A DNA stretch of 45,600 bases from an uncultured Bacteroidales bacterium (GCA_964345255.1 CAYFQK010000003.1:1-45600); one strand, 5' to 3'. Counted from the first letter of the stretch, positions 2,483 to 41,131 are shown. A program made the numbers and translations. The notes: generated by a model from the sequence alone, not told the origin.

Positions 2483-5400
2483 ATGTTGAGAAAACTACTA
2501 TTAACTTTTGGAGTTATACTGGCATCCAGTGTGTTGGTATTTTCACAATCGGGAACTCTCAAAGGAAAAATATTGGACAAGGAAACGGGAGATCCTATTC
2601 CTTTTGCGAATATTGTTATTCTTTTGGGGGGATCTCAGGAAGGTGGTGCAACAAGTGATATTGATGGAAATTACACAATAAAACCTGTAGCGCCGGGAAC
2701 ATACGATGTTAAGGCAACTTATGTGGGTTATCAAAGTGTCCAGATTAATGATGTGGTCATTAGTTCTGATAAGATTACTTTTTTAGACGTGAAGATGTCT
2801 TCTACGGCCCAAAACCTTGAAGAGGTAGTCATTAAGGACTACAAGGTGCCTTTGATTAGTAAAGACCAGACTTCTTCGGGAGGGACTGTTACCTCAGAAG
2901 AGATCGAAAAGATGCCGAACAAAAATGCCGAAGCCATTGCCACAACAGTCGGAGGTGTTTTTTCGGAAGATGGTGATGTGAAAAGTATCCGCGGACAGCG
3001 TGAGGAAGGTACCGTTTATTACATTGACGGTATTAAAGTGACCGGCGGTAAGAACCTTCCTGAATCATCTATCGAGCAGGTTTCTGTCGTTTTGGGTGGT
3101 GTACCTGCACAATATGGTGATGCCACCGGCGGTATCATCAACATTACTACAAAAGGACCCTCCAGGAAATTTGGCGGGGGCGTCTCACTCAGGACCTCGG
3201 AATACCTCGATGAGTATGGCTATAACCGGGTAGGACTTAATATGAATGGTCCTCTCCTGAAGAAAAAAAGTGAGGATGGGAATGCCAAATCTCTATTAGG
3301 ATACTACATTGCTGGTGAAATGATTTTCAAGCAGGATGGCAGGCCCACTTCTACCGGCGTGGACAGAGTCAAAGACAGCGTATTGAATTTTCTTGAGGAA
3401 GAGCCTATCAGGTTGCGCGAAACACAACAAGGAGCCTCTATTGTGAACAATGCATTGTTTTTGAGAGATGACGCCTTTAAGCATGTTGACGCCACCCTGA
3501 ATACCGACCGGACGAGGGTAAATCTGTCAGGGAAAATAGATATTAATACCGGTCCAAGGATGAACCTTACGGTAGGGGGAAACATGAGTTACATAGAAGC
3601 CAATAATTTTAGCTATTATAATTCATTGTTTAACTGGCAAAACAACCAGGAAGTCATTAACAATACCCGCCGGGGTTTTATTCGGTTTACTAATCGTTTT
3701 CCGAATTCGGAAGAAGAAGATCAGCTCATAAGCAATACTTACTTGTCTATACAGGCGGATTATTCCAGGTTTACAAGCAAGTCGCAGGACCCCAGGCATA
3801 AAGATAATCTACTTGAATACGGTCATGTTGGTCAGTATACTACTTACAAGGAAAGAAACTACGAGTTTAAATATGATTCCATCTCCGGAAAAGAAGCCTG
3901 GCATATGAATAACTGGGCTGATACGCTGGTTACTTTCCAACCGGGAGCCTCTAATCCCGTTTGGGCGAACTACACCGAAACGGTTTATTCCTTATTTGAT
4001 GAGCCTGATGGGAACTACGATAATCTGACAAATATTCTGAACCGGGGTGGACTGCTTAATAGTATGGGACCGAATAATGTGTACGGTATTTGGGCCAATG
4101 TGGGAACCCTTCAGTCTGGTTATAGCGAAACCCAGAATGATCAGCTCGGAATCGATCTCAGGGTTTCAACCGATATTGGTAACCATGAAGTGAGATTTGG
4201 TTTGAGCTATGAACAGCGCAGCAATAGATATTATGCCTACGGTCCGGACCAGTTTTGGCAGCTAATGCGTGACTTGACCAACTCACATATCCAACAGCTC
4301 AATTTGGATAACCCCAAACTGGTGACCCGCAATGGCTTCTTTATGGATACTGTAAATTACAATCGTTTATATGACGAAGCTTCGCAAAGAACTTTCGACA
4401 AAAGACTGCGTCAGGCTATGGGCCTGCCGGTTGACGGAACGGAGTGGATTGATGTGGATTCATACAACATGGAAACACAAACCATCAGTTATTACGACGA
4501 TCAGGGTAATCAGCACACGACACAACTTAATGAGCCTTTGAGCGAGGATATGTTTAGTGCCGATGAGCTTCTCAACTCAGGAAGCTACATAGGATATTTT
4601 TATGGCTTTGATCATCAAGGCAATAAGTTAGACCAGAGGCCAAGTTTTAATGACTTTTTTACTGAAAAGAATGAAAATGGAGTATTCACACGTCCGGTAC
4701 CCGCTTTTGAACCAGTATACACGGCAGGTTACATTCAGGATAAGTTTGCATTTAAAGATTTAATCTTTAATGTAGGTATTCGGGTAGACCGTTTTGATGC
4801 GAACCAAATGGTCCTGGAAGATCCTTACTTGTTGTTCCCTGCCGAGAGCGTATCGGAAGTAAAAGGTGGAGATTTGGGAGAAGTGCCCTCAAATATGGGA
4901 AATGAATACACGGTGTATGTAGATAATACATCCAATCCAACCAGAATTATGGGTTACCGCGACGGCCACACGTGGTTTGATGCGGCCGGCGAAGAGGTGC
5001 TTGACCCTGAAACGGCACTTGACGCAGGTAACGGAATACAACCAAAACTGGTGGATCCGGACAATGAACAGGTGTCTGCTGAAGTCTTTAAAGACTATGA
5101 GCCCCAATTAAGTGTGATGCCACGAATTGCGTTTTCATTCCCTATATCAGATGAAGCCCTTTTCTTTGCTCACTACGATGTGCTTACACAGCGCCCTAAG
5201 AATAGCTTGAGAATGCATCCGGCTACTTATTTTTTCATGCCGACATCAAGCCTTGGAACAACATCTATCAGCAATCCTAACCTGAAACCGGAACAAACAA
5301 TTGATTATGAGTTAGGGTTCCAGCAGAAATTATCCAACACCTCATCTTTAGTGCTTTCTGCTTTTTATCGCGAGATGCGGGACCAGATTCAGAGTTACAG

Positions 5401-6193
5401 GTACACCGGAGCTTACCCCAGCACATATTACTCTTTCAGAAACCTTGACTTTGGCACCGTTAAAGGCATGACGGTTACATACGACTTAAGAAGAACAAAA
5501 AATATCAGACTTAAAGCAAGTTATACATTGCAGTTTGCTGAAGGAACAGGTTCGAATCAGAATACCGCCAAGGCGCTTATTCAATCAGGTCAACCTAACC
5601 TCAGGACACTTATCCCGCTTAATTTTGATAGAAGACACCAGTTTAATGTTTCACTGGACTATCGTTTCAAAGGCGGGAATCAATACAATGGGCCTGTTAC
5701 AACGAGGAAAATTGAAGGAACCGATAAAACCAGGAGCATAAAATGGCTTCAAAACACGGGGGTAAATATTACCCTTAATGGAGGTTCGGGTACGCCCTAT
5801 ACGAAGTCAAGCCGTATATATCCGCTGGGTGGTCAGCGTGTTATCCAGGGCTCGATTAATGGAGCCCGTAAACCATCTCAGTTCCGGTTTGATTTGAGAC
5901 TGGACAGGGATATAGATATTACATTCGGTAGTGGTCAAAACAAACGGGGATCTACCATGAACATCTATGTACAAGTGTTGAACTTGTTTGATGCTATGAA
6001 TGTACTGAACGTTTACTCTGCCACGGGTAACGCCGATGACGACGGATATCTTGCTGCTGATGCATGGCAGACGAGCATAAACTCGAGGATTGATTCGCAG
6101 GCTTATCGTAACATGTATGCTATGCGGATTTACTCCCCGTTTAATTACAGTGCTCCCAGGAGGATTCGTTTCGGAGTAAACTTTAATTTTTAA
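2483..6193 (+). CDS. Oversized TonB-dependent-transporter-like outer membrane protein with a CarboxypepD_reg N-domain
   Basis: Signal peptide, then a CarboxypepD_reg-like domain (GTLKGKILDKETGDPIPFANIVI...DGNYTIKPVAPGTYDV). It also has a TonB-box-like LEEVVI, a plug (IRGQREEGTVYYIDGIKV...GGVPAQYGDATGGIINITTK), a roughly 1000-aa barrel region and an OMP-type C-terminus RIRFGVNFNF. Confidence 0.85.
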   Translation: MLRKLLLTFGVILASSVLVFSQSGTLKGKILDKETGDPIPFANIVILLGGSQEGGATSDIDGNYTIKPVAPGTYDVKATYVGYQSVQINDVVISSDKITFLDVKMSSTAQNLEEVVIKDYKVPLISKDQTSSGGTVTSEEIEKMPNKNAEAIATTVGGVFSEDGDVKSIRGQREEGTVYYIDGIKVTGGKNLPESSIEQVSVVLGGVPAQYGDATGGIINITTKGPSRKFGGGVSLRTSEYLDEYGYNRVGLNMNGPLLKKKSEDGNAKSLLGYYIAGEMIFKQDGRPTSTGVDRVKDSVLNFLEEEPIRLRETQQGASIVNNALFLRDDAFKHVDATLNTDRTRVNLSGKIDINTGPRMNLTVGGNMSYIEANNFSYYNSLFNWQNNQEVINNTRRGFIRFTNRFPNSEEEDQLISNTYLSIQADYSRFTSKSQDPRHKDNLLEYGHVGQYTTYKERNYEFKYDSISGKEAWHMNNWADTLVTFQPGASNPVWANYTETVYSLFDEPDGNYDNLTNILNRGGLLNSMGPNNVYGIWANVGTLQSGYSETQNDQLGIDLRVSTDIGNHEVRFGLSYEQRSNRYYAYGPDQFWQLMRDLTNSHIQQLNLDNPKLVTRNGFFMDTVNYNRLYDEASQRTFDKRLRQAMGLPVDGTEWIDVDSYNMETQTISYYDDQGNQHTTQLNEPLSEDMFSADELLNSGSYIGYFYGFDHQGNKLDQRPSFNDFFTEKNENGVFTRPVPAFEPVYTAGYIQDKFAFKDLIFNVGIRVDRFDANQMVLEDPYLLFPAESVSEVKGGDLGEVPSNMGNEYTVYVDNTSNPTRIMGYRDGHTWFDAAGEEVLDPETALDAGNGIQPKLVDPDNEQVSAEVFKDYEPQLSVMPRIAFSFPISDEALFFAHYDVLTQRPKNSLRMHPATYFFMPTSSLGTTSISNPNLKPEQTIDYELGFQQKLSNTSSLVLSAFYREMRDQIQSYRYTGAYPSTYYSFRNLDFGTVKGMTVTYDLRRTKNIRLKASYTLQFAEGTGSNQNTAKALIQSGQPNLRTLIPLNFDRRHQFNVSLDYRFKGGNQYNGPVTTRKIEGTDKTRSIKWLQNTGVNITLNGGSGTPYTKSSRIYPLGGQRVIQGSINGARKPSQFRFDLRLDRDIDITFGSGQNKRGSTMNIYVQVLNLFDAMNVLNVYSATGNADDDGYLAADAWQTSINSRIDSQAYRNMYAMRIYSPFNYSAPRRIRFGVNFNF

Positions 6194-6222
6194 TTAGTTA
6201 AGAAATAGATAAAGTGGAAATT

Positions 6223-9200
6223 ATGTATAGAAAAAGATTAACCTTATTTGTACTTGTGCTCGCTCTGCTTTCTGCCATTCCGTATCAAACTTCGGCGGAG
6301 GAATGGAAGAAAAAGTCAGACAATAAAAAGCGCACAAAGACAATAAAATCAACTGCTGCCGGGTGCTTACCGGGCACCGCCTACCAGTACCTTGATGTGA
6401 ATAATGTGAGGGCACGTATTAATACTGGCGGTGATATGTGGTGGGATTTTGAGAATGCAAAATACGAAATCCCCGCAGGAACCGGTAAAACCTCCATGTT
6501 CTCCGCAGCGCTTTGGCTTGGTGGTGTCGACGTCAATGACCAGTTAAAGCTGGCTGCACAAATGTACCGCTATGGCCCGGATATTCAGGGAAGAAGTGAT
6601 ACAGACTATTTTACAGGTCCGCTTACTACCGACGGTTCGGCTGCCGTTAGCCAGGCTACTTGTAAAGCCTACGACAAAATGTTTCCTATCTCAAGGCAGG
6701 AAGTAAACGAATTTATTGCTAAATGGGATAATCCTGAACAATATCCGGATTACAATCCGCCAAGGTCAATTACCGAATGGCCTGCTCACGGAGATATTAC
6801 AAAGGGCCAAAGCTATTACCTGGCACCCTTTTATGATAATAATGGCGACGGGGATTATAATCCTGCCCAGGGGGATTATCCTTATTATGATGTGGATAAT
6901 GACCTTTGCGGTACGCAAACACCCACGCAGGATGAAATGGCAGGCGATGTAATTGCGGGGACATCGGTACTCGCCGACCAGGTCATCAAAGGCGATGAGA
7001 CACTGTGGTGGGTCTTTAATGATAAGGGAAACTTCCATGCTGAAACAACCGGTGCACCTATTGGAGTCGAGATTCGTGCACAGGCCTTTGGCTTTTCAAC
7101 AAATGACGAAATAGATGACATGAGCTTCTACTCTTACGAGATTATTAACCGCTCTACGTTTACCCTGAAGGATACTTATTTTAGCCAGTGGGTTGATACC
7201 GACCTGGGCGATGCGGTTGATGATTACGTCGGTTGTGATGTTCAGCGCGGACTGGGTTATTGTTACAATGGGGATCCCAATGATGGTCAGGGTCAGCCAT
7301 GGACTTATGGTGAAAACCCCCCTGCTATTGGTGTTGATTTCTTCCAGGGACCTTATATTGACGACGATGGGTTAGATAATAAAAAATTCACGGGCGACTG
7401 CTCCATATTTGATTTTAATGCCCCCGCCGGCAGTGCTGATGATGGAAGCGCCATAAACGGTATTAACTTTGGCGACTCTATAGTGGACAATGAGCGTTTT
7501 GGAATGCGCCGCTTCGTTTATCACAATAATCCGGGATCAGGTGCTGCAGGTCCTTACATGCACGACCCTGATTATGCCATTGATTATTATAACTATCTGA
7601 GAGGTATTTGGAGAGATGGAACCAAAATGATTTATGGTGGGAATGGCCATGAGACAGCCGGTGGATACGGACCGGAATGCGACTTTATGTTCCCCGATCA
7701 ATCTGACCCTTGTAACTGGGGTACTGACGGGCAGGAACCCAACGGACCGGTGGAATGGACGGAAGAAACAGCAGGAAACCTCAAAGGTGACCGCCGTTTT
7801 ATGCAGTCGGCCGGTCCTTTTACGCTTGAGCCTGGAGCTGTAAACTACATTACAGTTGGTATACCCTGGGCAAGAGCTAACAGAGGGGGGCCGTTTGCAT
7901 CAGTTGAAAAACTTAAGGTTGCTGACGATAAAGCCCAGGCGCTTTTTGATAATTGCTTTGATGTTGTGGATGGTCCCAGAGCTCCTGATTTAACAATTAA
8001 GGAAGCGGATCAAAAACTGACCATATTTATTACGAACCGCAATATTTTGGGATCAGGAAACAATTACAGAGAACAATATGAGGAAATTGACCCAACCATT
8101 AGCTCACCTGATACTTTAACAGGTGACGACAGATGGGACTCGACATATAACTTTGAAGGATATAAGATTTATCAATTGGCTTCGCCTGATGTTTCGGAAC
8201 TCGATAATCCCGATAAGGCACAGCTTGTTATGCAATGCGATATCGATAACGGGGTAGACCGCCTTATCAATTATGAGTTTAATGAAAACCTGGATGCTAC
8301 CGTCCCCAAAATCAAGGTGGACGGAAACGACGAGGGGATTAAGCATACGTTTACTCTTGAAAAGGATTTCTTTACCGGCGAGGATTTGGTTAATCATAAG
8401 CAGTATTATTATAAAGCCATAGCTTATGGATATAATAACTACAAGGATTATGATCCGGAAACTGCAATAGACGGACAAAAACTTCCTTACCTTGAAGGAC
8501 GTGGAAACATAAGATCATACACGGGTATCCCGCATAAGAATGTCTCCGATATGAAAGAGCGGGCAGATTATGGTGACGGCCTTCCTGTAACCAGATTACA
8601 GGGAAGAGGAAATAGCGGCAATTATCTTAAACTTAAAGATGAAGTGTATGACCGGCTTCTCGAGAAATCACCGTATGACACAAATATGACTATTGCTGAT
8701 GATAATTATCCTATGGTCAGCGATTTGGAATATCAACCGGGATATGGTCCGATTAATGTGAAGGTTATTGACCCAATGAATGTAAAAGAAGGTAATTATG
8801 TCGTTCTTTTGGATTCACTGGTAAAATATCAGTTCACGGATGTTACCGAGGCAGCAAATCTCATTGATGGCGGTGATACGTTAAATAAGTTTGTTGCTGA
8901 GTGGTATCTTAAAGATATAGGAACCGGTGAAGTGTATCGCTCAGATACGACGATCATTAGAAATAATGAACAACTATTCCTTGATCTGGGAATTTCTGTG
9001 GAGGTAGTTCAGGTTCATCGTCCCGGCCCTATTCAGGTGGGAAGAGTAGAAATTTCCAGTACTTCTTCTGAACCAGTAATATTTAATACCGATAATAATG
9101 GGTACATTGGGTCGAGTATAAAATTTGCAGATTCCCTGAACCAATGGCTGACGGGGATACCGGATGACGATTTAGCTCCGGGAGGTTATACGGATTGGAT

Positions 9201-10533
9201 ACAGGCAGGAGCCAGTTCTCCGGCCGATCCGTCGGATTCACAATTAGCCGACGTTAACTTAACAGCCCCATCTCCCTATGTGGCTGACCCGGGATCGGTA
9301 TATGAGACCGTCCTCAATGGAACGTGGTCTCCATTCAAAATGGTAGCCACATCTAAACAGTCGACAACAGGTCCGGCAATCAGAAGGCGGCAGCAAAGCA
9401 AGCCCAAGTATCACGCCAGAGAATTAGCTAATTGGAGTTCGCTGGCCAGTGTGGATGTTATTATCACACCCGACTCAACGAAATGGACCAGATGTCCGGT
9501 AGTTGAAACACAGTCGAACCCGGAACTGTCTGAAGGCGGGGCACTGCAATACACCCCGAGAAAAGCGCCATCAGTGAACGTGATGGGAGAAGCCGGGGTG
9601 GAAAGTGATAACCCCCTTCTCAATTCAAATTATATCGACAGTACTGGAATGGGATGGTTCCCGGGATATGCCGTTAACGTTGAAACCGGTGAGCGACTGA
9701 ACATGGCCTTTGGCGAAGACTCCTGGTGGGCACAGGATAATGGACGCGACATGTTGTGGAATCCATCTTCACGTATTTATACTAATACATTTGAGCCGGC
9801 CATGGGTGGTAAGCATTATGTGTATGTTTTTGCTCATGATTCTGTCAAATTTGAATTCGGGCCATTTAACTATAAGTTTATCCAGCCACCTTATGATGCG
9901 GGCAGAAACCTGAAGACTTATCTGGATACAACGTTAGACATTAACTCCACGTTCTTTACGGCACCTGAATTTGCATTCGGAACAGCCATGTGGGTAAATG
10001 TGCCATTAGCAGCTGATGAAGAAAAGTGGCTTTCTACAGAAGCTAAAATTGAGCTTCGCGTGAATAAGGCCTTCGGAAGGTTTGAAACCAGGCATTCCGG
10101 TAATCTCTCTGAGTACGATATCCCGGAAGTGGATGTCCAGGACGGATATCCGGTATATACGTTCTCCACTGAGGGCTATGGTCCGGTAGAGAAAGAAAAA
10201 CCAGAGATTAAAAGCGATCTTGATTTAATCAGTGTCGTCCCCAACCCGTATTATGGGTATAATCAGTATGAGGAAAACCAGCTCGACAACAGGGTTAAGT
10301 TTACCAATCTACCTCAAACATGTACCATTACGATTTACAATGTCAGTGGTACACTGGTGCGTCAGTATAAGAAAGACAATCCAAGTACACAGTTAGATTG
10401 GGACCTTAAAAATTTTGCTGGGATACCTGTCTCCGGAGGAGTTTATTTTATTCATGTGAAATCTCCGGGTAAAGGAGAACGCGTGGTGAAGTGGTTTGGA
10501 GCAATGCGTCCAATTGACCTGAACGCATTTTAA
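6223..10533 (+). CDS. Large secreted protein (1436 aa from the ATG) with a type-A T9SS C-terminal sorting domain; function unknown
   Basis: Signal peptide MYRKRLTLFVLVLALLSAIPYQTSA, with the ATG at 6223 preferred over the GTG at 6214. It carries D-rich Ca-binding-like motifs (YDNNGDGDYNPAQGDYPYYDVDND; VDTDLGDAVDDYVGCD). I saw no HExxH, GDSGG or other catalytic signature. The CTD is listed as a separate feature. Confidence 0.8.
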   Translation: MYRKRLTLFVLVLALLSAIPYQTSAEEWKKKSDNKKRTKTIKSTAAGCLPGTAYQYLDVNNVRARINTGGDMWWDFENAKYEIPAGTGKTSMFSAALWLGGVDVNDQLKLAAQMYRYGPDIQGRSDTDYFTGPLTTDGSAAVSQATCKAYDKMFPISRQEVNEFIAKWDNPEQYPDYNPPRSITEWPAHGDITKGQSYYLAPFYDNNGDGDYNPAQGDYPYYDVDNDLCGTQTPTQDEMAGDVIAGTSVLADQVIKGDETLWWVFNDKGNFHAETTGAPIGVEIRAQAFGFSTNDEIDDMSFYSYEIINRSTFTLKDTYFSQWVDTDLGDAVDDYVGCDVQRGLGYCYNGDPNDGQGQPWTYGENPPAIGVDFFQGPYIDDDGLDNKKFTGDCSIFDFNAPAGSADDGSAINGINFGDSIVDNERFGMRRFVYHNNPGSGAAGPYMHDPDYAIDYYNYLRGIWRDGTKMIYGGNGHETAGGYGPECDFMFPDQSDPCNWGTDGQEPNGPVEWTEETAGNLKGDRRFMQSAGPFTLEPGAVNYITVGIPWARANRGGPFASVEKLKVADDKAQALFDNCFDVVDGPRAPDLTIKEADQKLTIFITNRNILGSGNNYREQYEEIDPTISSPDTLTGDDRWDSTYNFEGYKIYQLASPDVSELDNPDKAQLVMQCDIDNGVDRLINYEFNENLDATVPKIKVDGNDEGIKHTFTLEKDFFTGEDLVNHKQYYYKAIAYGYNNYKDYDPETAIDGQKLPYLEGRGNIRSYTGIPHKNVSDMKERADYGDGLPVTRLQGRGNSGNYLKLKDEVYDRLLEKSPYDTNMTIADDNYPMVSDLEYQPGYGPINVKVIDPMNVKEGNYVVLLDSLVKYQFTDVTEAANLIDGGDTLNKFVAEWYLKDIGTGEVYRSDTTIIRNNEQLFLDLGISVEVVQVHRPGPIQVGRVEISSTSSEPVIFNTDNNGYIGSSIKFADSLNQWLTGIPDDDLAPGGYTDWIQAGASSPADPSDSQLADVNLTAPSPYVADPGSVYETVLNGTWSPFKMVATSKQSTTGPAIRRRQQSKPKYHARELANWSSLASVDVIITPDSTKWTRCPVVETQSNPELSEGGALQYTPRKAPSVNVMGEAGVESDNPLLNSNYIDSTGMGWFPGYAVNVETGERLNMAFGEDSWWAQDNGRDMLWNPSSRIYTNTFEPAMGGKHYVYVFAHDSVKFEFGPFNYKFIQPPYDAGRNLKTYLDTTLDINSTFFTAPEFAFGTAMWVNVPLAADEEKWLSTEAKIELRVNKAFGRFETRHSGNLSEYDIPEVDVQDGYPVYTFSTEGYGPVEKEKPEIKSDLDLISVVPNPYYGYNQYEENQLDNRVKFTNLPQTCTITIYNVSGTLVRQYKKDNPSTQLDWDLKNFAGIPVSGGVYFIHVKSPGKGERVVKWFGAMRPIDLNAF
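10213..10530 (+). other. Type-A T9SS C-terminal sorting domain of the 1436-aa protein
   Basis: SVVPNPYYG...VKFTNLPQTCTITIYNVSGTLVRQY...LDWDLKNFAGIPVSGGVYFIHVKSPGKGERVVKW matches the Por-secretion-tail pattern (PNP...I.IYN..G..V......D......G.Y). A short tail, FGAMRPIDLNAF, follows. Confidence 0.75.
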
Positions 10534-10555
10534 TCCGTGATAATCAATTGGTAGA

Positions 10556-11638
10556 ATGATAAAAAGTTATATTATGAATACGATATATCATTATTTAATC
10601 GCAGTATTATTATCAGGTTTGTTTATATTTCCGGCTAATGAAGCATTAGCCGGAAATAAGGACCGTTCAGGGGAAGCCGGAGCTACCGAACTCCTGATAA
10701 ATCCATGGGCCCGTAGTTCCGGATGGGGTAGTGTAAGTACCGCAAGTGTCCAGGGGCTCGAAAGTATGTTCGTGAACATTGCAGGCGCTGCCTTCACTGA
10801 TGGAACAGAAGTGATTTTCAGCTCTACACAATGGCTGAAAGGAAGTGGTACCGACGTTATGGCTTTCGGACTCACACAAAAAACAGGCGCTTCGGGAGTC
10901 CTCGGGCTTAACATGATGTCTATGAGTTTTGGTGACATTCAGGTGACTGAAGTGAATACCCCTGAAAGCGACATCGGAACCTTTTCGCCAAACCTGATGA
11001 ATATAGGAGTTTCTTATTCTAAGATTTTCTCCAATAGTATATATGGCGGAATTCAGGTAAAAGCGATATCGGAAAATATATCCGATTTGAGCGCTACGGC
11101 TCTTGCCATAGATGCAGGAATTCAATATGTAACCGGGCCTCAGGATAATATTCGTTTTGGTATTACTTTGAGAAACTGGGGTACTAAACTATCTTATACA
11201 GGTGATGGTATTGCTTTCCGTGTATCACCACCAGGTCAGGATGATGAGTTTACTCTTGAGCAGCGTTCGGCTTCATACGAATTGCCTTCGCAGATGAATA
11301 TAGGAGCTTCTTACGATTTTGTATTTGATAAGCACGTTTTTACTCTGGCGGGTAATTTCAGGTCCAATGCATTTACTAATGACCAGATAACCTTTGGTGC
11401 TCAGTATAAACTGATGGATTACCTGATGCTTAGAGGAGCTTACACTACGGAAGAGGGTATTAATAATGCTATTGACAGCGGCGAGCGCTATACCGTCGAT
11501 GATGGCCTTAGTGCCGGTATGACGGTGGAGATTCCCTTAAACAAAGATAGCAACACAACATTTGCCGTAGATTATGCGTTAAGAACAACTGCGCACTTTG
11601 ATAATACGCATAGCATAGGTGCCAGGGTAAATTTCTAG
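10556..11638 (+). CDS. PorV/PorQ-like outer membrane beta-barrel protein
   Basis: Signal peptide, then an N-terminal motif SGEAGATELLINPWARSSGWGSVSTASVQGLESMFVNIAGAAF. This resembles the PorV/PorQ-family signature (..A..L.I....R..G.G.A.......A...NPAG.A). The rest shows an alternating beta-strand pattern and a C-terminal IGARVNF. An alternative ATG lies at 10574. Confidence 0.6.
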   Translation: MIKSYIMNTIYHYLIAVLLSGLFIFPANEALAGNKDRSGEAGATELLINPWARSSGWGSVSTASVQGLESMFVNIAGAAFTDGTEVIFSSTQWLKGSGTDVMAFGLTQKTGASGVLGLNMMSMSFGDIQVTEVNTPESDIGTFSPNLMNIGVSYSKIFSNSIYGGIQVKAISENISDLSATALAIDAGIQYVTGPQDNIRFGITLRNWGTKLSYTGDGIAFRVSPPGQDDEFTLEQRSASYELPSQMNIGASYDFVFDKHVFTLAGNFRSNAFTNDQITFGAQYKLMDYLMLRGAYTTEEGINNAIDSGERYTVDDGLSAGMTVEIPLNKDSNTTFAVDYALRTTAHFDNTHSIGARVNF

Positions 11639-11667: not shown

Positions 11668-11699
11668 AACAAGAGGACCTTTTCGGAGGTCTTCTTGTT
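11668..11699 (+). terminator. Rho-independent terminator closing the 2483-11638 operon
   Basis: AACAAGAGGACCT (11668-11680) pairs with AGGTCTTCTTGTT (11687-11699), 13 bp with one G-U pair. The loop is TTTCGG and a T-rich tail ATTATTGT follows. Confidence 0.65.
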
Positions 11700-12673: not shown

Positions 12674-12716
12674 GAGCGAGCCTGCTAATAAAAGTGTTTT
12701 TTTAGTAGGCTCGTTC
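12674..12716 (-). terminator. Hairpin terminator whose 5' arm (as read on the minus strand) covers the last codons of the purF-like gene
   Basis: GAGCGAGCCTGCTAA (12674-12688) pairs with TTAGTAGGCTCGTTC (12702-12716), 15 bp with 2 G-U pairs and a 13-nt loop. On the minus strand the hairpin is followed by TTTCTTATCAGTTTTT. Confidence 0.5.
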
Positions 12717-14603
12717 ATTACGGCCTTCAATATAATTAATAAAAGATCGATTTACCACTTTATTACCTCCCGGTGTGGGATACTTTCCTGTAAAATACCA
12801 GTCTCCGTTATGATTGGGAATGGCCCGGTGAAGGCTTTCGATGGACTGATAAACAATTTGAACGTCAGCCCTGACATCGGGCGAAGACACCAGTTGTGAA
12901 ATTTTTGTGGAAATCTGCTTTGCAGTGAAAGGGGCGTATATGGATTTAACGTGGTTCACCATTTGCTCTTTGGGAAGGGATTCCTGTGCTTTACACTTCT
13001 GGTAAACCTCATTAATAACATGCTGCCGGTTGCTTTCTTTGAGTAGTGCAATAGCCGCATTGAAAGCAATGAAATCATTTAATTTGGCCATATCAATACC
13101 ATAGCAGTCGGGGTAACGTATTTGAGGAGCTGAAGACCCTATAATGATCTTTTTTGGGTTTAAGCGGTCCAGGATACGTATGATGCTATGTTTAAGCGTC
13201 GTGCCACGAACTATGGAGTCATCCAGGACTACCAGCGTATCTTTCCCATCCTCTATTATACCATAGGTCACATCATAAACATGAGCCACCAACTCATCCC
13301 GTTTTTGGTCCTGCGTTATGAAAGTGCGCATTTTCGCGTCTTTCACAGCTACATTTTCAATTCGGGGTCTTAGCGAGAGAATATCATTCAGCTCCTCCTG
13401 AGCGGATACATCCTTCATAGCTGTAATACGGTCTTTTTTAACCGAATCACAGAAATTATGCAATTCATCTATCATGCCATAATAAGCCACTGAAGCTGTA
13501 TTGGGGATATAGCTAAAAACGGTATGCTTGAGGTCGTAGTTTACCTCTTTTAATATATCCTGTACGAGATATTTTCCCAGGTTTTTGCGTTCATTATAAA
13601 TATCTTTATCCGAACCCCTGGAAAAATATATCCTTTCAAAGGAACACGGCCGCACTACGTCACTTTTTTTAAAAGGCTTTTCACTTACCTCTCCGTTATG
13701 CTTGATTACCAGTGCGTGGCCGGGCTTCACCTCCCGGATGTTTTCAAGCGGAACGTTAAATGCAGTTTGGATTACCGGCCTTTCAGAAGCAGCCACAACC
13801 ACCTCATCGTCCACATAGTAGAAGGCGGGTCTGATTCCGCCCGGATCGCGCATAACAAAGGCATCGCCATGCCCAAGAAATCCGCCTATAGCATAACCTC
13901 CATCCCAGCGTTTTGCTGATTCCTCCAGCATCCGGTGAACATCAATGTTCTCAATGATTTTATCCGTTATTTCGATTTTGCCGTATCCCTGTTTCCGGTA
14001 ATGGGAGTAAAGACGCTCATTTTCTTCATCCAGGAAGTGGCCTATTTTTTCAAGGACGGTAATTGTATCGGAGGTTTCAACGGGGTATTGCCCCAACTCC
14101 ACCAACTGGTCAAACAATTCGTCGACGTTAGTAAAATTAAAATTACCCGCCAGCACCAGGTTTTTTGTTTTCCAATTGTTCTCTCTTATAACCGGATGTA
14201 AAAATTCTATATCATTTCCGCCGAAAGTTCCATAGCGTAAATGACCCAGGAAAAGCTCCCCGGTAAAACCGACATTATCTTTTAACCAGTTAACATCGCG
14301 CAGCAAGTGAGGCTGGGTTGCCTGAATTCTGGAAAACTGGGAGTAGACTTTATTAAATACATCTTTTATGGGGGATGGGTCATTCGAACGACTGCGGTGG
14401 ATATAGCGCTTACCGGGTTCCATATCGAGCTTCAGGTTAGCGATTCCTGCTCCATCCTGCCCGCGATTATGCTGCTTCTCCATTAGCAGGTGCAACTTAT
14501 TCATGCCATAGAATGCCGTACCGTATTTCGAAAGATAATATTCAAGAGGTTTCCTTAGTCTTACAAGCCCTATACCACATTCATGCTTTATTAGTTCACT
14601 CAT
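12702..14603 (-). CDS. purF: Long-form class II glutamine amidophosphoribosyltransferase (PurF-like)
   Basis: Ntn nucleophile context MSELIKHECGIGLV, NRGQDGAGIA and the PRPP-binding loop LVVLDDSIVRGTT. The ATG at 14603 is preferred because the listed ORF start at 14630 is a TTG that would lie upstream of the predicted transcription start. Confidence 0.8.
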   Translation of the reverse strand: MSELIKHECGIGLVRLRKPLEYYLSKYGTAFYGMNKLHLLMEKQHNRGQDGAGIANLKLDMEPGKRYIHRSRSNDPSPIKDVFNKVYSQFSRIQATQPHLLRDVNWLKDNVGFTGELFLGHLRYGTFGGNDIEFLHPVIRENNWKTKNLVLAGNFNFTNVDELFDQLVELGQYPVETSDTITVLEKIGHFLDEENERLYSHYRKQGYGKIEITDKIIENIDVHRMLEESAKRWDGGYAIGGFLGHGDAFVMRDPGGIRPAFYYVDDEVVVAASERPVIQTAFNVPLENIREVKPGHALVIKHNGEVSEKPFKKSDVVRPCSFERIYFSRGSDKDIYNERKNLGKYLVQDILKEVNYDLKHTVFSYIPNTASVAYYGMIDELHNFCDSVKKDRITAMKDVSAQEELNDILSLRPRIENVAVKDAKMRTFITQDQKRDELVAHVYDVTYGIIEDGKDTLVVLDDSIVRGTTLKHSIIRILDRLNPKKIIIGSSAPQIRYPDCYGIDMAKLNDFIAFNAAIALLKESNRQHVINEVYQKCKAQESLPKEQMVNHVKSIYAPFTAKQISTKISQLVSSPDVRADVQIVYQSIESLHRAIPNHNGDWYFTGKYPTPGGNKVVNRSFINYIEGRNERAY

Positions 14604-14627
14604 TTGGTGATCCCTGTTATTTTTATG

Positions 14628-14635
14628 CAAAAATA
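14628..14635 (-). promoter_or_regulatory. -7 box TATTTTTG (minus strand) for the purF-like gene
   Basis: The plus strand reads CAAAAATA, an exact TAnnTTTG match. It ends 24 nt upstream of the ATG at 14603. Confidence 0.5.
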
Positions 14636-22771: not shown

Positions 22772-23713
22772 ATGAACTTTCGGATTATATTAATTGCCTT
22801 AGCAGGTATTTTTTCGGCCTCATTATCTCATGGTCAGCAGGAAGCACAGGTAACACAGAATATGTTTAACTACATGTCTGTGAATCCCGGATACGCCGGC
22901 ATGCGTGGTGGGATCTGTGCTACCGGAATTGTAAGACAGCAATGGGTGGGACTCAAAGATATGGAAGGCAATAATATTAACCCTGAAACTTTTTTCTTGT
23001 CAGTAGATTCTCCGGTCGAGTTTCTTCATGGAGGCCTTGGCGCCACCATTCACCAGGATGAATTGGGATATACAAGCAATGTTGGAATTGAGCTGGATTA
23101 TTCTTATCATACGCGTTTGTGGTATGGTGACCTGGGTATAGGATTTAACATTGGATTTTTAAACCAGGTAGTGGATTTTGGAAGTCTTAATCCCATTGAT
23201 GGCACCGATCCTGTTCTTGAAGAGCGCCAGGGGGAAGAGCAGGATATGGTCATAAATTTTTCATTGGGCGCTTATTACAAGGTTGAAGGAGATTATTATG
23301 TGGGAGTGGCTACTACACGGATGCTGCAGAATCAGGCTCCTACCACACGGTATTACCCCAGAAGACATTATTATGTGATGGGAGGATACCATTACCAACT
23401 TACACCTGAGTATGAAGTGACGCCCTCAATTATGGTTACTTTTGATGGAGCGACCACACAATTTGATTTGGGAAGTGTCGTTCAATATAAAGATAAATAT
23501 TGGGGAGGAGTAAACTATAGAGCTCAAGATGCTGTCTCCCTTATAGCCGGTTTATACTGGAAAGATTTTAAATTTGGCTATTCATATGATTTAACCACGT
23601 CCCGGCTTGCAGGGGCAGGCTCAGGCGGTGCGCACGAGCTAATGCTGGGATATTGTTTTAAATTGGAGTTGGAAAAAGATAATAATAAATACAGGAATAC
23701 CAGATTTTTATAA
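22772..23713 (+). CDS. porP: PorP/SprF-family type IX secretion system membrane protein
   Basis: Signal peptide, then the family-typical QQEAQVTQNMFNYMSVNPGYAG, GAHELMLGY and a C-terminal NTRFL. It lies directly upstream of gldK, as porP does in Porphyromonas. Confidence 0.8.
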   Translation: MNFRIILIALAGIFSASLSHGQQEAQVTQNMFNYMSVNPGYAGMRGGICATGIVRQQWVGLKDMEGNNINPETFFLSVDSPVEFLHGGLGATIHQDELGYTSNVGIELDYSYHTRLWYGDLGIGFNIGFLNQVVDFGSLNPIDGTDPVLEERQGEEQDMVINFSLGAYYKVEGDYYVGVATTRMLQNQAPTTRYYPRRHYYVMGGYHYQLTPEYEVTPSIMVTFDGATTQFDLGSVVQYKDKYWGGVNYRAQDAVSLIAGLYWKDFKFGYSYDLTTSRLAGAGSGGAHELMLGYCFKLELEKDNNKYRNTRFL

Positions 23714-23787
23714 TTTTACAAAATTTACGAAGTCAACAATATTAATAATTGAAAAACGTTGTCTCGATATAAAACACCGACGATAAT

Positions 23788-25158
23788 ATGAGAAAATTAC
23801 TAATTTTATCGGCATTAGCAGCCCTTCTTTATGGATGTGGTAACAGCGGTAATGGAGAACTTGTAGGAGTTCAGGACAGAGCTAAATTTTACCAGCCAGA
23901 TCCTTATGGAATGGCTTATATCCCAATGGGAAGTTACACCATGGGTATTGGGGGCGAAGATGTCCCGAAAGCTAATCTTAGGGACCCCAAAACGGTTACT
24001 GTTTCGGCCTTTTATATGGATGAAACAGAAATTACGAATAACGAGTACCGGCAATTTGTGCATTGGGTCAGAGACTCCATTGCCAGAAGATTATTAGCTA
24101 TTAATAATCCCGATCAATTTAGCCGCTTTATTCAACAGCCTGAGGGAGAAAACGCCGTACCCCTTCCACCAGAGGAAGCCCCTTTGAACTGGGATGAAGA
24201 AATTGAATGGGAAGATGAGCAGGTAGCTGAGGTGCTTGAGAATCAAACCGAGTTTTATATTCCAAAAGAAGAACGGTTTTTCCGCAAAAAGGAAGTTGAC
24301 GCCCGTCAGCTTAATTATGAGTACTACTGGATTGATTTGAAAAAAGCAGCCAGTAAACAATACGACGAAAAAGCCAACCCCGAGGAGGGGATGTTCGGGA
24401 ATAGAACCACATCCAGGGCCGACTTGGTACAAAGAGATAAGATCAATATCTATCCGGATACACTCGTTTGGATCCATGATTATACATACACGCATAATGA
24501 CCCTATGGTGAAGAAATATTTCTCTCATCCGGCATATGACCATTACCCGGTTGTTGGGGTGAACTGGAAACAAGCTAGAGCCTTCAGTATCTGGAGAACC
24601 CAGCTTCGGTCTTCTTATTTGCGAAGCCAGGAAAAAGCAGTTTCCCATGAATTTCGTCTCCCTACTGAAACAGAGTGGGAATGGGCGGCCAGAGGCGGCT
24701 ATGAGGGCAACCCTTATCCATGGGGTGGTCCTTATACAAGAAACGCCAAAGGTTGTTTCCTCGCCAACTTTAAGCCGATGAGGGGCGATTATGCTGATGA
24801 TGGAGGCGGACGAACAGTTATTGTCGGGCATTACCCGCCAAACGATTTTGGACTCTATGACATGTCGGGAAACGTGGCGGAGTGGACGGCTGATACATAC
24901 GATGAAATCTCCGATCATTATAAGTGGGATTTTAATCCTTATTTCAATTATGAAGCCTCGGAGGATGACCCTGAAACCCTGAAAAGAAAGGTTATTCGTG
25001 GCGGTTCATGGAAGGATGTGGCATACTACCTGCGGGTGACTACCAGGGCTTATGAGTATCAGGATACAGCCAAGAGTTATATCGGATTCCGATGTGTTCA
25101 GGATTATATGGGAAGACAAAAAGGAGGGAATCCATCTAAAGCATCACGTGTATATTAA
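23788..25158 (+). CDS. gldK: T9SS/gliding lipoprotein GldK (PorK), FGE-sulfatase fold
   Basis: Lipobox LLYGCGNSG, GELVGVQDR...PYGMAYIPMGSYTMG, and SUMF1-like motifs (YPVVGVNWKQARAF, RLPTETEWEWAARGG, GLYDMSGNVAEW, RGGSW, IGFRCV). Confidence 0.9.
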   Translation: MRKLLILSALAALLYGCGNSGNGELVGVQDRAKFYQPDPYGMAYIPMGSYTMGIGGEDVPKANLRDPKTVTVSAFYMDETEITNNEYRQFVHWVRDSIARRLLAINNPDQFSRFIQQPEGENAVPLPPEEAPLNWDEEIEWEDEQVAEVLENQTEFYIPKEERFFRKKEVDARQLNYEYYWIDLKKAASKQYDEKANPEEGMFGNRTTSRADLVQRDKINIYPDTLVWIHDYTYTHNDPMVKKYFSHPAYDHYPVVGVNWKQARAFSIWRTQLRSSYLRSQEKAVSHEFRLPTETEWEWAARGGYEGNPYPWGGPYTRNAKGCFLANFKPMRGDYADDGGGRTVIVGHYPPNDFGLYDMSGNVAEWTADTYDEISDHYKWDFNPYFNYEASEDDPETLKRKVIRGGSWKDVAYYLRVTTRAYEYQDTAKSYIGFRCVQDYMGRQKGGNPSKASRVY

Positions 25159-25193
25159 CTATAACAATACGACTAAGGAGAAAATAAAAAATT

Positions 25194-26162
25194 ATGGCTA
25201 AGAGTAGTAAGCGCGTTAAACATAGGAAAAGTTTCCTTGAAACCAGGGGATTTAAAAAATTCATGGGTAAGCTTTATGGATTTGGAGCCTCTGTTGTAAT
25301 TATTGGAGCATTATTTAAAATCCAGCATTATCCCGGAGCAAATATTATGCTTCCATTGGGACTGGGCATGGAAGCAATCATCTTCTTCTTTCAGGGGCTA
25401 CAGAAACCCCATGTTGAGCCTGACTGGAGTTATATTTATCCCGAATTTATTGATTTGTATCATTCCCCCAAGGAAGAGGAAAAATTGAGAGCCAGGGGAA
25501 AATTGCCTGAACATGATAAGACGCCTGAAGGAGGCGGCGGTAGCGGCTCCGGAACGGGGACTGCCATTGATGTACTCATGCAGCAGGCTGACATTAGTTC
25601 AGAGGAGCTGGACCGCTTTGGTAAAGGATTGCAAAAGTTTACAAAGCAGACAGAGAAATTAAGTGATATTTCCGATGCCGCTGTGGCAACCGAAGATTAT
25701 GTAAAAAATATTAAAAAAGCATCTGATTCAGCTGATAAAATGAATGAGAGTCTTGAACAGGCGTCAGAAACCGTTGCTAATGAGTTTAAAGACGGCGGCG
25801 AATACGCTCAAAACGTAAAGAAAGCCTCTGAGGCAGCAGCTGGTCTTGCCGACGTTTACCAGAAAAACGCCGATGAATTAAAGAAAGAAAATGATGAATA
25901 TGGCCAGGTGGTATCCAAGATTAAGGATAACCTCACTGCCCTTAATTCGGTTTATGAGCTACAGCTGCAGGACTCAAATAAGCAAAAAGAATCGTCGCAG
26001 AAAATGACGCAAAATGTTGAGTCTTTTCTCAGCAATCTGGATGCGACAAATAAAGCCACGGAAAACTATCAGAAACAAGTTAATATTCTGACCGAGAAAG
26101 TTACAGCATTGAATAATGTCTATGGAAATATGCTTTCGGCAATGAATGTTAACGATAAATAA
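25194..26162 (+). CDS. gldL: T9SS/gliding motor protein GldL (PorL), long form
   Basis: Two N-terminal TM helices (KLYGFGASVVIIGALFKIQHYPGA; LPLGLGMEAIIFFFQG), a GGGGSGSGTG linker and a long coiled-coil-like tail. At 322 aa it is closer to PorL length. Confidence 0.85.
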   Translation: MAKSSKRVKHRKSFLETRGFKKFMGKLYGFGASVVIIGALFKIQHYPGANIMLPLGLGMEAIIFFFQGLQKPHVEPDWSYIYPEFIDLYHSPKEEEKLRARGKLPEHDKTPEGGGGSGSGTGTAIDVLMQQADISSEELDRFGKGLQKFTKQTEKLSDISDAAVATEDYVKNIKKASDSADKMNESLEQASETVANEFKDGGEYAQNVKKASEAAAGLADVYQKNADELKKENDEYGQVVSKIKDNLTALNSVYELQLQDSNKQKESSQKMTQNVESFLSNLDATNKATENYQKQVNILTEKVTALNNVYGNMLSAMNVNDK

Positions 26163-26193
26163 AAAATAGTTTTTCTGAAAAAATAAAATTCTG

Positions 26194-27849
26194 ATGGCGG
26201 CATATAAAGAAACACCAAGACAAAAGATGATCGCGATGATGTATCTCGTGCTAACGGCATTGTTAGCGCTGAATGTATCAAAAGAGGTTATAGATGCTTT
26301 TGGGGTGGTTAACGAGAGTCTGGAGAAGACAAATCAAAATTACAGTAATAAGATTGATCAGATATACACAGTATTTGAGAACAAGTACAAAGCAAACAAA
26401 GAAAAGGTTGGTCCATACTGGGAGAAGGCAAAAGAAGCACGGGAATATTCCGATGAAATGAAAGCATATTTGGAAGATACCAAGGATTCAGTTATTGTTC
26501 TTGCCGAAGGCGGTACTATGGAGTCCATCCGCAGGAATGTGGCCGAAAAAATGGGTGTGCCGGCGGATGAAGTAGATAATATTCCTTTGAATTATCTGAA
26601 GCGTAAAGATCAATATGATAAAACAACTCATTACTTCGTCCCCAATACTTCTAAATCCAGATCAAAAGGAAAGGCCCAGGAAATAAGAAAGCGATTTATT
26701 GAATATCGCGAAAATATAATGGGATTATTACCGAAGGGTGATAGAGAAGGTTTACAGATTGGACCTGATTTTGATGCTGAGTATGTAAATGCGGATGGGC
26801 AGACCGAAACGTGGGAAACGCATAATTTTTATCACACCATCATGGCTGCTGATGTTACCATTTTAAACAAGCTTATTACCGAGGTTCAGAATTCTGAATT
26901 TGACGTGGTGAATTATCTCTACTCTAATATTTCGGAGGAAGATTTCAAATTTACCAATGTAGAGGCCAAGGTGATACCTGAAAAGGGTTATATTTTACAA
27001 GGCGGAGAATATTCTGCCGATGTGATAGTAGCAGCTTACGATACCACCCAGCGACCCCAGGTTTATATCCAGCATGGAGTAGACTCTATCACAGATTTAA
27101 ACCGGGCTACGCGCCTTGAGTCCGCAGAAGATATTGTTAACCTGGACTTTCCTGCTGATGAGGTAGGTGAGCATAAGTATGCAGGCGTGCTTCGAATTAG
27201 AGAACCCGGAGGATTATTCCAAAAGTATTATTTTAAGGATTCCTACAGCGTAGGGCGTAAATCAGCCACCGTATCAGCAGATAAGATGAATGTCTTTTAC
27301 AAAGGGGTTCCCAACCCCGTATCAATTTCGGTACCAGGGGTCCCGGCTCACCAAATGCAACCCACTATTGATGTGGGAACCATTAGCAGTGAAGGTGATG
27401 GGACGTATTCGGTCAGCATACCTGGTGAGGTGGACCAGCGAACTGCCTCTGTGCGGGTTAATGCCTTGCTGGAAGGGGAGAATACTTTCTTTGATGAATA
27501 TAAGTTTAGGATCAAAAAAATACCCGATCCTACGCCAACTATTGGCGGAACATATACCTCGGGAGATGTGGAAAGGGATTTTCTGGAAGTATCAAGTATA
27601 ATTGCCAAAACCCCCGACTTTTTTGAATTTGATTACACTTTTCCGGTAGTCAGCTTCGTTATGTATTATACCGGCGCCGACGGTTATCCGGTTGAGCTGG
27701 TGTCTAACAGCAATAATTTTACAGATGAAATGAAAGCTCAGTTTGAACGGTTAAGAACCGGGTCAAGAATTCAGTTTGAGCGGATTAGAGTTAAAGGTCC
27801 TGAGGGCGAAAGAGAATTGGATAATGTTATTTCGATTAAAATAGATTAG
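26194..27849 (+). CDS. gldM: T9SS/gliding protein GldM (PorM)
   Basis: N-terminal PRQKMIAMMYLVLTALLALNVSKEVIDAF (single TM) followed by a long periplasmic region. Its position between gldL and gldN fits. Confidence 0.85.
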   Translation: MAAYKETPRQKMIAMMYLVLTALLALNVSKEVIDAFGVVNESLEKTNQNYSNKIDQIYTVFENKYKANKEKVGPYWEKAKEAREYSDEMKAYLEDTKDSVIVLAEGGTMESIRRNVAEKMGVPADEVDNIPLNYLKRKDQYDKTTHYFVPNTSKSRSKGKAQEIRKRFIEYRENIMGLLPKGDREGLQIGPDFDAEYVNADGQTETWETHNFYHTIMAADVTILNKLITEVQNSEFDVVNYLYSNISEEDFKFTNVEAKVIPEKGYILQGGEYSADVIVAAYDTTQRPQVYIQHGVDSITDLNRATRLESAEDIVNLDFPADEVGEHKYAGVLRIREPGGLFQKYYFKDSYSVGRKSATVSADKMNVFYKGVPNPVSISVPGVPAHQMQPTIDVGTISSEGDGTYSVSIPGEVDQRTASVRVNALLEGENTFFDEYKFRIKKIPDPTPTIGGTYTSGDVERDFLEVSSIIAKTPDFFEFDYTFPVVSFVMYYTGADGYPVELVSNSNNFTDEMKAQFERLRTGSRIQFERIRVKGPEGERELDNVISIKID

Positions 27850-27853
27850 TATT

Positions 27854-28732
27854 ATGAATATTTCAAAGGTATTTATAGTTGTTTGTGTATTAATGGTTGG
27901 CTTTTTAAGTCAGGGATACGCACAGTATGACAAGGATCCGCGAAAAAGCGCGAAGCAGAATTTTGAAGAGCCTAATGCCAACATTGTTGACAGGGCACAT
28001 TTTCAGGAACGCTTTCCCGTGAAGTATCCACCTCTGCGGGAGGCGGATTTGATGTGGCAAAAGCGCGTATGGCGGGAAATTGATTTTATTCAGAAAAAGA
28101 ATCATCCTTTCTATTTTCCGGTAGAACCAAAGTTTGGGCGGGCAAGCCTGGCTTCTTATGTCTTCGACTCCATCAAATCAGGGAATATTGTAGCCTATGA
28201 GCACAATGAGCCTATGAAGTTTCAGCTGCCGATGACGCCGCCTCAGTTTGAAAACTCACTCACTTCTGAGCGGCAAACGGATTTTACAAGGCAAACTGCT
28301 GACGGAGGCCAGATAACAGTGGACACAACCATTCAGGTTACGCTGAAACCCTCTGATGTCAAAAGGATAAGGCTGATGGAAGACTGGTACTTTGATAAAG
28401 AGCGATCCATGTTCGATGTCAGGGTGATTGGCATTGGATTTATCATGGAGAATCGTGAAGGGAAACTCATTCCCAAGTTTTGGATATATTATCCGCATGC
28501 GCGGCGGGCGCTCGTCCGGTCAGAAAATCTTGTACACGATGGAAACAGAGCGCAGTCATATTCTTATGCCGCTATGCTGGAGAAAAGAAGATTCTCGAGT
28601 TTGATTACCAAAGTGGATAATGTGTATGATCGTTATATTCAAAGTTACACCGATCAGCAGGAAACACTATACGAAGCCAGAAGACTCGAGAGAGACCTGC
28701 TTGAATTTGAACAGAACCTGTGGGAGTATTAA
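27854..28732 (+). CDS. gldN: T9SS/gliding periplasmic ring protein GldN (PorN)
   Basis: Signal peptide, then the GldN-typical PPLREADLMWQKRVWREIDFIQKKNHPFYFP. It is the last gene of the operon. Confidence 0.8.
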   Translation: MNISKVFIVVCVLMVGFLSQGYAQYDKDPRKSAKQNFEEPNANIVDRAHFQERFPVKYPPLREADLMWQKRVWREIDFIQKKNHPFYFPVEPKFGRASLASYVFDSIKSGNIVAYEHNEPMKFQLPMTPPQFENSLTSERQTDFTRQTADGGQITVDTTIQVTLKPSDVKRIRLMEDWYFDKERSMFDVRVIGIGFIMENREGKLIPKFWIYYPHARRALVRSENLVHDGNRAQSYSYAAMLEKRRFSSLITKVDNVYDRYIQSYTDQQETLYEARRLERDLLEFEQNLWEY

Positions 28733-35392: not shown

Positions 35393-35393
35393 T

Positions 35394-41096: not shown

Positions 41097-41131
41097 AAAA
41101 ACCTTAGCTCTCCTCTGAGGGCTAAGGTTTT
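41097..41131. terminator. Bidirectional hairpin terminator overlapping the stop codon of the minus-strand gene
   Basis: AAAACCTTAGC (41097-41107) pairs perfectly with GCTAAGGTTTT (41121-41131) and can extend inward. T-rich tracts follow on both strands. Confidence 0.6.

Follow-up and report, generated by a model that had tools for sequence, protein, structure and literature searches.

We describe a three-gene cluster (positions 2483-11638) on a 45,600-nucleotide stretch of DNA from an uncultured Bacteroidales bacterium (GCA_964345255.1 CAYFQK010000003.1:1-45600; the whole stretch is hereafter the window, with positions counted from its first nucleotide). [quoted passage not shown] The trio is best explained as a vertically inherited outer-membrane operon of environmental Bacteroidia. 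We propose that the gene 2 product would remain docked on the gene 3 barrel and capture a ligand for import through gene 1, a reading to which, taken as a whole, we assign a probability of roughly 0.45. Each of the components, TBDT, T9SS cargo and PorV-family barrel, is of a known kind; neither the trio nor this fixed combination is described in the literature searched, in agreement with a preliminary description of the window, made from the sequence alone, which knew of no function for it.

The operon and its boundaries comprise the following features.

2380-2482, + strand: leader upstream of gene 1 and presumed promoter region, the promoter being placed by homologous regions.
2483-6193, + strand: gene 1, 1236 residues and 138 kDa, a TBDT with large extracellular-loop insertions.
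6223-10533, + strand: gene 2, 1436 residues from the ATG, a protein predicted to be exported by Sec and the T9SS.
10556-11638, + strand: gene 3, 360 residues, a PorV/PorQ-family outer-membrane barrel.
11668-11699, + strand: hairpin and probable terminator with a 14-pair stem and a 4-nucleotide loop, preceding greA (11738).

The three co-directional open reading frames (ORFs) lie 29 nucleotides (genes 1 and 2) and 22 nucleotides (genes 2 and 3) apart, reproducing the layout given in the preliminary description. An alternative start is possible for gene 2, at an in-frame GTG at 6214. For gene 3, the frame coordinates stand, but the ATG at 10556 that had been taken as its start probably does not: because homologs are 352-356 residues long and cover 98% of the query, translation probably begins at the second ATG (Met7, nucleotide 10574), giving a protein of 354 residues and therefore a gap of 40 nucleotides after gene 2. 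The closing hairpin, earlier credited with 13 base pairs, is real; its T-tail is weak (ATTATTGTCT).

Comparison across species points to the same boundaries. The spacer between gene 3 and greA folds with z < -2 relative to shuffled sequence in 89% of 79 homologous loci. The Bacteroidota -7 motif TAnnTTTG occurs before gene 1 in 21 of 71 homologous upstream regions (30%) and before greA in 48%, against a background of 8%, and at the two internal junctions in only 4 of 81 and 0 of 81 cases. Median gaps across loci are 39 nucleotides between genes 1 and 2 and 34 between genes 2 and 3, as opposed to 106 before greA. Co-linearity, the spacing of about 35 nucleotides, the conserved 3' hairpin and the lack of an internal promoter motif across species thus strongly support, at the level of sequence, a single conserved transcription unit, with which the boundary signals are consistent. 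Rfam searches, covering the window and the region upstream of gene 1, found no element and with it no riboswitch-type clue to a substrate.

Among GTDB species genomes, at least 563 contain a relative of gene 2. In the best 80 loci, our reference set, genes 1, 2 and 3 are followed by greA and HIT in the same order and on the same strand in 80 of 80 cases where the contig reaches; recurrence in so many species loci excludes chance adjacency. The genomes in question carry the labels Lentimicrobiaceae, Prolixibacteraceae, Draconibacterium or 'Bacteroidales'. The trio is kept where the identity of genes 1 and 2 is down to 33-37% (loci L081 and L084), and the cultured type strain of Lentimicrobium saccharophilum (L085) also carries it. 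When the most divergent members served as seeds for a metagenome scan, 41 loci emerged that could be judged on both sides: all three genes are there in 34, gene 2 stands alone in 5, and in the other 2 genes 2 and 3 are followed by greA and HIT but lack gene 1, its place upstream being taken by a UvrD helicase (L131) or an M28 peptidase (L165). An orphan gene 2 also occurs in L083. The genes, first described as one unit from a single sequence, are thus co-conserved in hundreds of species of environmental Bacteroidota, in close (80/80) and divergent (34/41) loci alike, and the trio is the dominant and ancient, although not strictly obligatory, arrangement. Extra copies of gene 2 were seen beside greA at L076 10121-14194, between greA and HIT, and at L134 9663-13673, between gene 3 and greA, which suggests that gene 2 duplicates recurrently next to the trio.

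Gene 1 is divided as follows.

2483-2545, + strand: signal peptide, residues 1-21, MLRKLLLTFGVILASSVLVFS, recognized by reading the sequence.
2558-2833, + strand: N-terminal extension, a CarboxypepD_reg-like Ig domain, residues 26-117; PF13715 (CarbopepD_reg_2), 61.2 bits.
2816-2833, + strand: TonB-box-like LEEVVI, residues 112-117, ending the N-terminal extension.
2864-3136, + strand: plug, residues 128-218; PF07715, 35.2 bits against a cutoff of 23.9.
3167-6190, + strand: β-barrel with long loop insertions, residues ~229-1236, from AlphaFold 2 (AF2) secondary structure and Foldseek.

The signal peptide, CarboxypepD_reg-like domain, LEEVVI motif, plug and outer-membrane-protein C-terminus listed in the preliminary description were all recovered by Pfam and by inspection of the sequence, together with a TonB_dep_Rec barrel domain in Pfam; the protein closes with ...FGVNFNF, its final residue being phenylalanine. 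In the N-terminal extension, the family profile matches N-terminal domains of Bacteroidota TBDTs whose structures are solved (6ytc and 9hfj, 'SusC homolog'). LEEVVI sits between this extension and the plug, where it would be expected, and is a candidate TonB box by its sequence and position (the family consensus is LExFEVxDYK). An AF2 model of residues 118-1236, built on an alignment of 120 homologs, has a pLDDT of 86.3 and a pTM of 0.84. Foldseek matches it to FptA, PfeA, BtuB, Cir and XusA (E 2e-26 to 1e-22, probability 1.00, TMt 0.60-0.78), with Fiu also among the matches, in alignments that span entire TBDT chains, plug included; FptA (1xkw) ranks first with E = 2e-26, BtuB reaches a TMt of 0.78 and XusA of the Bacteroides thetaiotaomicron XusAB complex (9gbc) one of 0.72. 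At the level of folds and families, gene 1 is thereby shown to be a complete Bacteroidota-type TBDT, modelled in the 22-strand-barrel fold class. About 450 extra residues sit in loop insertions with column identities of 0.58-0.76; the plug is the best-conserved part of the protein, at 0.85-0.89.

The SusC/RagA-type NCBIfam model does not match gene 1, which sets it apart from that subfamily, and no SusD-like gene is found among its neighbours (gene 2, gene 3 and small family-less ORFs), bearing out the earlier remark that a SusD-like lipoprotein is absent. On these two counts, a classical SusC/SusD polysaccharide-utilization locus is ruled out.

The gene 1 structural matches also bear on an explanation in which the trio would be a T9SS accessory or surface-biogenesis machine, a PorZ/PorQ-like pair with a PorF-like barrel serving secretion, attachment or lipopolysaccharide (LPS) handling and not import. 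PorF (PG0534; CHU_1606) belongs to the T9SS yet resembles a TBDT; its best template in modelling is FptA (PMC5445135, PMC8754138, PMC8564354), the top match of gene 1, and the Cytophaga hutchinsonii PorF homolog co-purified with PorV (PMC8564354). PorF and gene 1 have in common a TBDT-fold barrel and FptA as best structural match, and PorF is linked to the T9SS and PorV both in function and physically; the PorZ-like C-terminal domain (CTD) of gene 2, the core-gene-like conservation of the trio beside greA and ahcY, and the T9SS core in the same window would fit as well. However, PorF is by description a protein of ~92 kDa and reportedly plug-less, whereas gene 1, at 138 kDa and 1236 residues, possesses a TonB-box-like motif as well as an N-terminal extension, and its plug is highly conserved. 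The gene 2 body, moreover, shows no β-propeller or C25 peptidase similarity in Pfam, NCBIfam or Foldseek, and the scores on the PorV, PorQ and PorZ equivalog models fall far below their cutoffs. We consider a machine of this kind distinctly unlikely.

Gene 3 scores 131.7 bits against NF033709, the PorV/PorQ family model (cutoff 90), and its own family profile matches Flavobacterium johnsoniae PorV (6h3i_F) at E = 4.6e-12. Its early assignment as PorV/PorQ-like therefore holds, and it is not a barrel of the FadL or OmpA type. The equivalog scores, 61.6 bits against a cutoff of 250 for PorV and 59.2 against 220 for PorQ, rule it out as the housekeeping form of either, and the match to PorP_SprF is marginal (24.5 bits). 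Because the family cutoff is passed and both equivalog cutoffs are missed widely, gene 3 represents a third kind of PorV-family barrel, distinct from housekeeping PorV and PorQ.

Gene 2, the protein that this barrel would serve, has the following parts.

6223-6297, + strand: signal peptide, residues 1-25, with cleavage after TSA, as read from the sequence.
6304-8103, + strand: N-terminal 'head', residues 28-627, conservation 0.78.
8104-9423, + strand: β-sandwich or fibronectin type III (FnIII)-like spacers and a variable region, residues 628-867 and 868-1067, conservation 0.39-0.56.
9424-9912, + strand: C-terminal core, residues 1068-1230, with the motif GMGWFPGYA.N.ETGERLN and invariant columns, conservation 0.64-0.78.
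10228-10530, + strand: Type-A-like T9SS CTD (residues 1336-1425; TIGR04183) and an 11-residue tail, GAMRPIDLNAF.

Against TIGR04183, the generic Type A model, the CTD scores 24.7 bits, a marginal pass of the cutoff of 23, and the Type B model TIGR04131 finds no match in gene 2 at E ≤ 0.01. With a signal-peptide-like N-terminus and T9SS genes in the window, this upholds the initial view of gene 2 as a secreted protein with a Type A CTD. The core T9SS genes reported earlier are indeed present, as porP-porK-porL-porM-porN at 22772-28732; canonical porU, porV, porQ and porZ are all missing from the window. Gene 2 is probably not a lipoprotein, to judge from its sequence: an invariant cysteine, Cys48, lies past a charged linker and outside a lipobox context. 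Its C-terminus otherwise resembles the CTD of PorZ alone. The NCBIfam PorZ model NF052228 matches the C-terminus only (26.3 bits, cutoff 260), and the PorZ CTD (5m11) is the sole PDB chain found by two gene 2 family profiles (E 0.12 and 0.006). That partial match, well below the cutoff, and the lack of a propeller in Foldseek exclude gene 2 as PorZ itself; the lack of any Peptidase_C25 or PorU match in Pfam, NCBIfam and Foldseek likewise excludes it as PorU.

The C-terminus is also the part of gene 2 that has changed least. Column identity is 0.80 in the CTD and 0.86 in the tail, compared with 0.78 in the head and ~0.5 in the variable regions; among the deeply divergent members, pairs are on average 50% identical over CTD and tail as opposed to 36% over the body. 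In general, Type A CTDs reportedly share less than 40% identity (PMC12618676). A motif, LKWFGxxRPxDLxxF, is preserved in distant and orphan copies. L083 (5830-14134) contains a tandem pair of gene 2 paralogs, with neither gene 1 nor gene 3 close by. Their overall identity is 55%, but it reaches 99.3% over the last 135 nucleotides: a local gene-conversion tract at the CTD end, seen in this single case. One locus, L162 (1635-5813), has genes 1 and 2 without gene 3, with SOD-like and MgtE genes downstream, and its tail has diverged to ...KFFGGMRQVDLQNM.

Because the CTD is best conserved, PorZ-CTD-like and homogenized between paralogs, we favour a gene 2 CTD that would be retained after export and would dock on a conserved receptor, the obvious candidate for which is the barrel encoded by gene 3. 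In Porphyromonas gingivalis, the T9SS attachment complex offers a precedent: PorU and PorZ are CTD-bearing surface proteins held non-covalently by their CTDs on the PorV/PorQ-family barrels PorV and PorQ, and these cognate barrels are proposed to protect the CTDs (PMC10202324). The present pair resembles PorZ-PorQ in its PorZ-like CTD and PorV/PorQ-family barrel; it differs in that the gene 2 body is neither a β-propeller, as in PorZ, nor a C25-like sortase, as in PorU, in that gene 3 fails both equivalogs, and in that the pair is joined to a TBDT in an operon.

Another account would make gene 2 an ordinary cargo, released or attached to A-LPS after its CTD is cleaved by PorU, with gene 3 as a general-purpose PorV paralog. 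The match to the generic Type A model suits this account, as does the prevailing view that PorV serves every Type A CTD (PMC12618676). Yet a disposable tag is unlikely to be the best-conserved segment of a protein, to carry a conserved extra tail and to be homogenized between paralogs, and gene 3 strictly adjoins gene 2 in almost all lineages; we regard this account as very improbable.

The order of the two genes is reminiscent of Type B cargo, for which a cognate shuttle gene lies directly downstream; cargo and shuttle pair specifically and stoichiometrically, and orphan cargo make use of a shared one (PMC12618676). As in SprB-SprF and Fjoh_3952-Fjoh_3951, the barrel gene comes right after the cargo gene, and orphan copies of gene 2 keep the same CTD, comparable to orphan cargo that share a shuttle. 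Here, however, the CTD is Type-A-like, and gene 3 is best classed as PorV/PorQ, with PorP_SprF only marginal.

In the scheme that we prefer, gene 2 would pass the outer membrane by way of the T9SS whose genes the window also carries, would keep its CTD and would stay on the gene 3 barrel, which would act as its dedicated shuttle and anchor much as PorQ does for PorZ or PorP/SprF-like barrels do for Type B cargo. This part of the scheme, comprising T9SS export, CTD retention and anchoring by gene 3, we consider rather likely. It preserves part of the interpretation offered in the preliminary description: the conserved unit and the PorV-family identity of gene 3 stand, and docking of gene 2 on gene 3 gains support, albeit indirect.

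What gene 2 does must be approached through a body for which searches returned little beyond the CTD. Some 1,300 residues have no Pfam or NCBIfam relative, even when 12 family members are included at E ≤ 1, and no PDB-sequence relative with the two family profiles. The head contains numerous invariant D, G, W and C residues. An AF2 model of residues 28-1227 (pLDDT 77.6, pTM 0.65) has no PDB match at E ≤ 1e-3 in Foldseek, only weak FnIII-type matches (2edb and 2crm, E 0.06-0.18); a single significant match, to FnIII repeats, came from the viral library BFVD (E = 8.5e-8). Unusually long relatives, scanned for fused domains, yielded one Big_9/cadherin insertion only. The attempt to assign a function to the body therefore ended with the CTD, generic FnIII/β-sandwich similarity and that one insertion, and gene 2 lies outside every characterized enzyme family in Pfam, NCBIfam, PDB profiles and Foldseek. 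The family itself is very large. A 90%-identity collection contains more than 6,279 homologs, all of them lacking any Pfam domain; at 50-73% identity, the best 120 are full-length. An exhaustive HMMER search gave 7,512 representatives of 50%-identity clusters (2,203 at E ≤ 1e-30), mostly 1,300-1,500 residues long, whose cluster names say little of taxonomy (of ten clusters, one had a name, 'Bacteroidia bacterium').

SusD, BtuG and XusB, the large surface partners of TBDTs, act as lids. In SusC-SusD, BtuB-BtuG and XusA-XusB, such a partner is encoded directly after the transporter, as gene 2 comes after gene 1; gene 1 is, further, a structural match of XusA (9gbc) and shares the Bacteroidota N-terminal extension. 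Gene 2 differs from SusD, BtuG and XusB: it is probably no lipoprotein, shows none of their folds, would be exported through the T9SS and probably has a third protein as its anchor. By analogy, the anchored protein, lying over or beside gene 1, would capture a generally available ligand for TonB-powered import, replacing the surface lipoprotein by one delivered through the T9SS. Near-constant adjacency, the conserved insertions of gene 1, correlated divergence and the TBDT-lipoprotein analogy make a coupling of gene 2 to uptake via gene 1 plausible; the specific step, capture by gene 2 for import by gene 1, we advance tentatively, as a little short of an even chance.

The correlated divergence comes from a mirror-tree comparison of distance matrices over 64 species, in which partial correlations were calculated after removing the greA/HIT signal. 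Genes 1 and 2 diverge together with r = 0.96 and genes 2 and 3 with r = 0.83; the partial values (0.91 for genes 1 and 2, 0.67 for genes 2 and 3, and 0.71 for genes 1 and 3) are inflated and are discounted here, given the shortness of the control proteins and the noise in their distances.

These data also speak to the possibility that genes 2 and 3 form a self-contained surface-display pair. In it, gene 3 would be the dedicated holder of an adhesin, coat protein or enzyme encoded by gene 2, and gene 1, an ordinary transporter, would be co-transcribed but would neither interact with gene 2 nor take substrate from it. The evidence for CTD retention would fit this equally, FnIII-like spacers are typical of surface proteins, genes 2 and 3 survive without gene 1 in L131 and L165, and gene 2 duplicates alone in L076, L083 and L134. 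On the other hand, gene 1 adjoins the pair in all 80 close loci and in 34 of the 41 divergent ones, at gaps of ~39 nucleotides, its divergence follows that of gene 2 more tightly than that of gene 3 does, and its unusually conserved extracellular insertions suggest a conserved partner. A display pair with a bystander transporter is, in our judgement, unlikely.

Several points nevertheless weigh against ligand capture by a docked gene 2. Gene 1 is not obligatory, as L131, L165 and the orphan copies of gene 2 (5 of 41 divergent loci, and L083) show: since genes 2 and 3 occur without gene 1, and gene 2 alone, gene 1 is dispensable to the gene 2-gene 3 pair. The earlier suggestion that gene 2 feeds gene 1 is plausible from adjacency, correlated divergence and the TBDT-lipoprotein analogy, but not as an obligatory coupling. 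Gene 3 can be missing too, as in L162. The CTD that clears the TIGR04183 cutoff so narrowly fails the Pfam gathering score (PF18962, 20.1 bits, cutoff 27), a model that 8 of the 12 family members match at E ≤ 1. Gene 2 could be assigned neither a ligand nor an enzyme or binding fold, so that 'capture' is an analogy. Finally, such deep conservation beside housekeeping genes is unusual for nutrient uptake and could mean a structural or biogenesis role.

The surroundings of the trio contain further genes of interest. Upstream, a family-less ORF of 148 residues between ahcY and gene 1 (1133-1579, - strand) is syntenic in most of the 80 loci with 34-54% identity, and one of 169 residues (1870-2379) is conserved in the closest relative only; both were considered as partners and neither could be tied to the trio. 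In a divergent clade, a protein of 841 residues with CarboxypepD_reg and DUF5686 domains follows greA and HIT downstream of the trio (L081 16123-18648, L082 6380-8905). In the window itself, a glutamine-amidotransferase protein of 642 residues (12702-14630, - strand) is weakly PurF-like (124.6 bits, cutoff 350) and is not a standard amidophosphoribosyltransferase. A cluster at 33645-36593 (+ strand), consisting of a 412-residue, apparently receiver-less sigma-54-dependent activator, an LptE-like protein (PF04390) and a family-less protein of 399 residues, may be related to LPS assembly. A second T9SS cargo, a 673-residue M1-family (aminopeptidase N-like) protein at 42942-44963 (+ strand) with a strong Type A CTD (TIGR04183, 38.5 bits), has no adjoining PorV-like gene, unlike gene 2; beside it lies a protein of 585 residues with an N-terminal Big_5 Ig-like domain and DUF2141 (41122-42879, - strand).

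The operon is a widespread apparent exception to the current scheme in which Type A cargo go to the general PorV and a private downstream shuttle marks Type B (PMC12618676), and it suggests that a TBDT surface partner can be obtained in the Bacteroidota without lipoprotein export. Gene 2 stands for a very large 'dark' family that is conserved almost like its housekeeping neighbours; because of this conservation, its role is probably important to the abundant hosts of anaerobic digesters, sediments and freshwater in which it occurs. A bolder form of our proposal, which we hold to be possible but on balance doubtful, is that the trio is a near-universal TonB uptake machine of environmental Bacteroidia, assembled by the T9SS in place of lipoprotein export, with gene 2 as the substrate-capturing lid or antenna of an enlarged TBDT, a protein of some 1,400 residues and new fold that would keep a specialised Type A CTD and be docked for life on a private PorV-family barrel. 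The cultured host L. saccharophilum makes the hypothesis directly testable. If true, it would extend the 'cognate shuttle' logic to Type A CTDs and link the T9SS directly to nutrient import.

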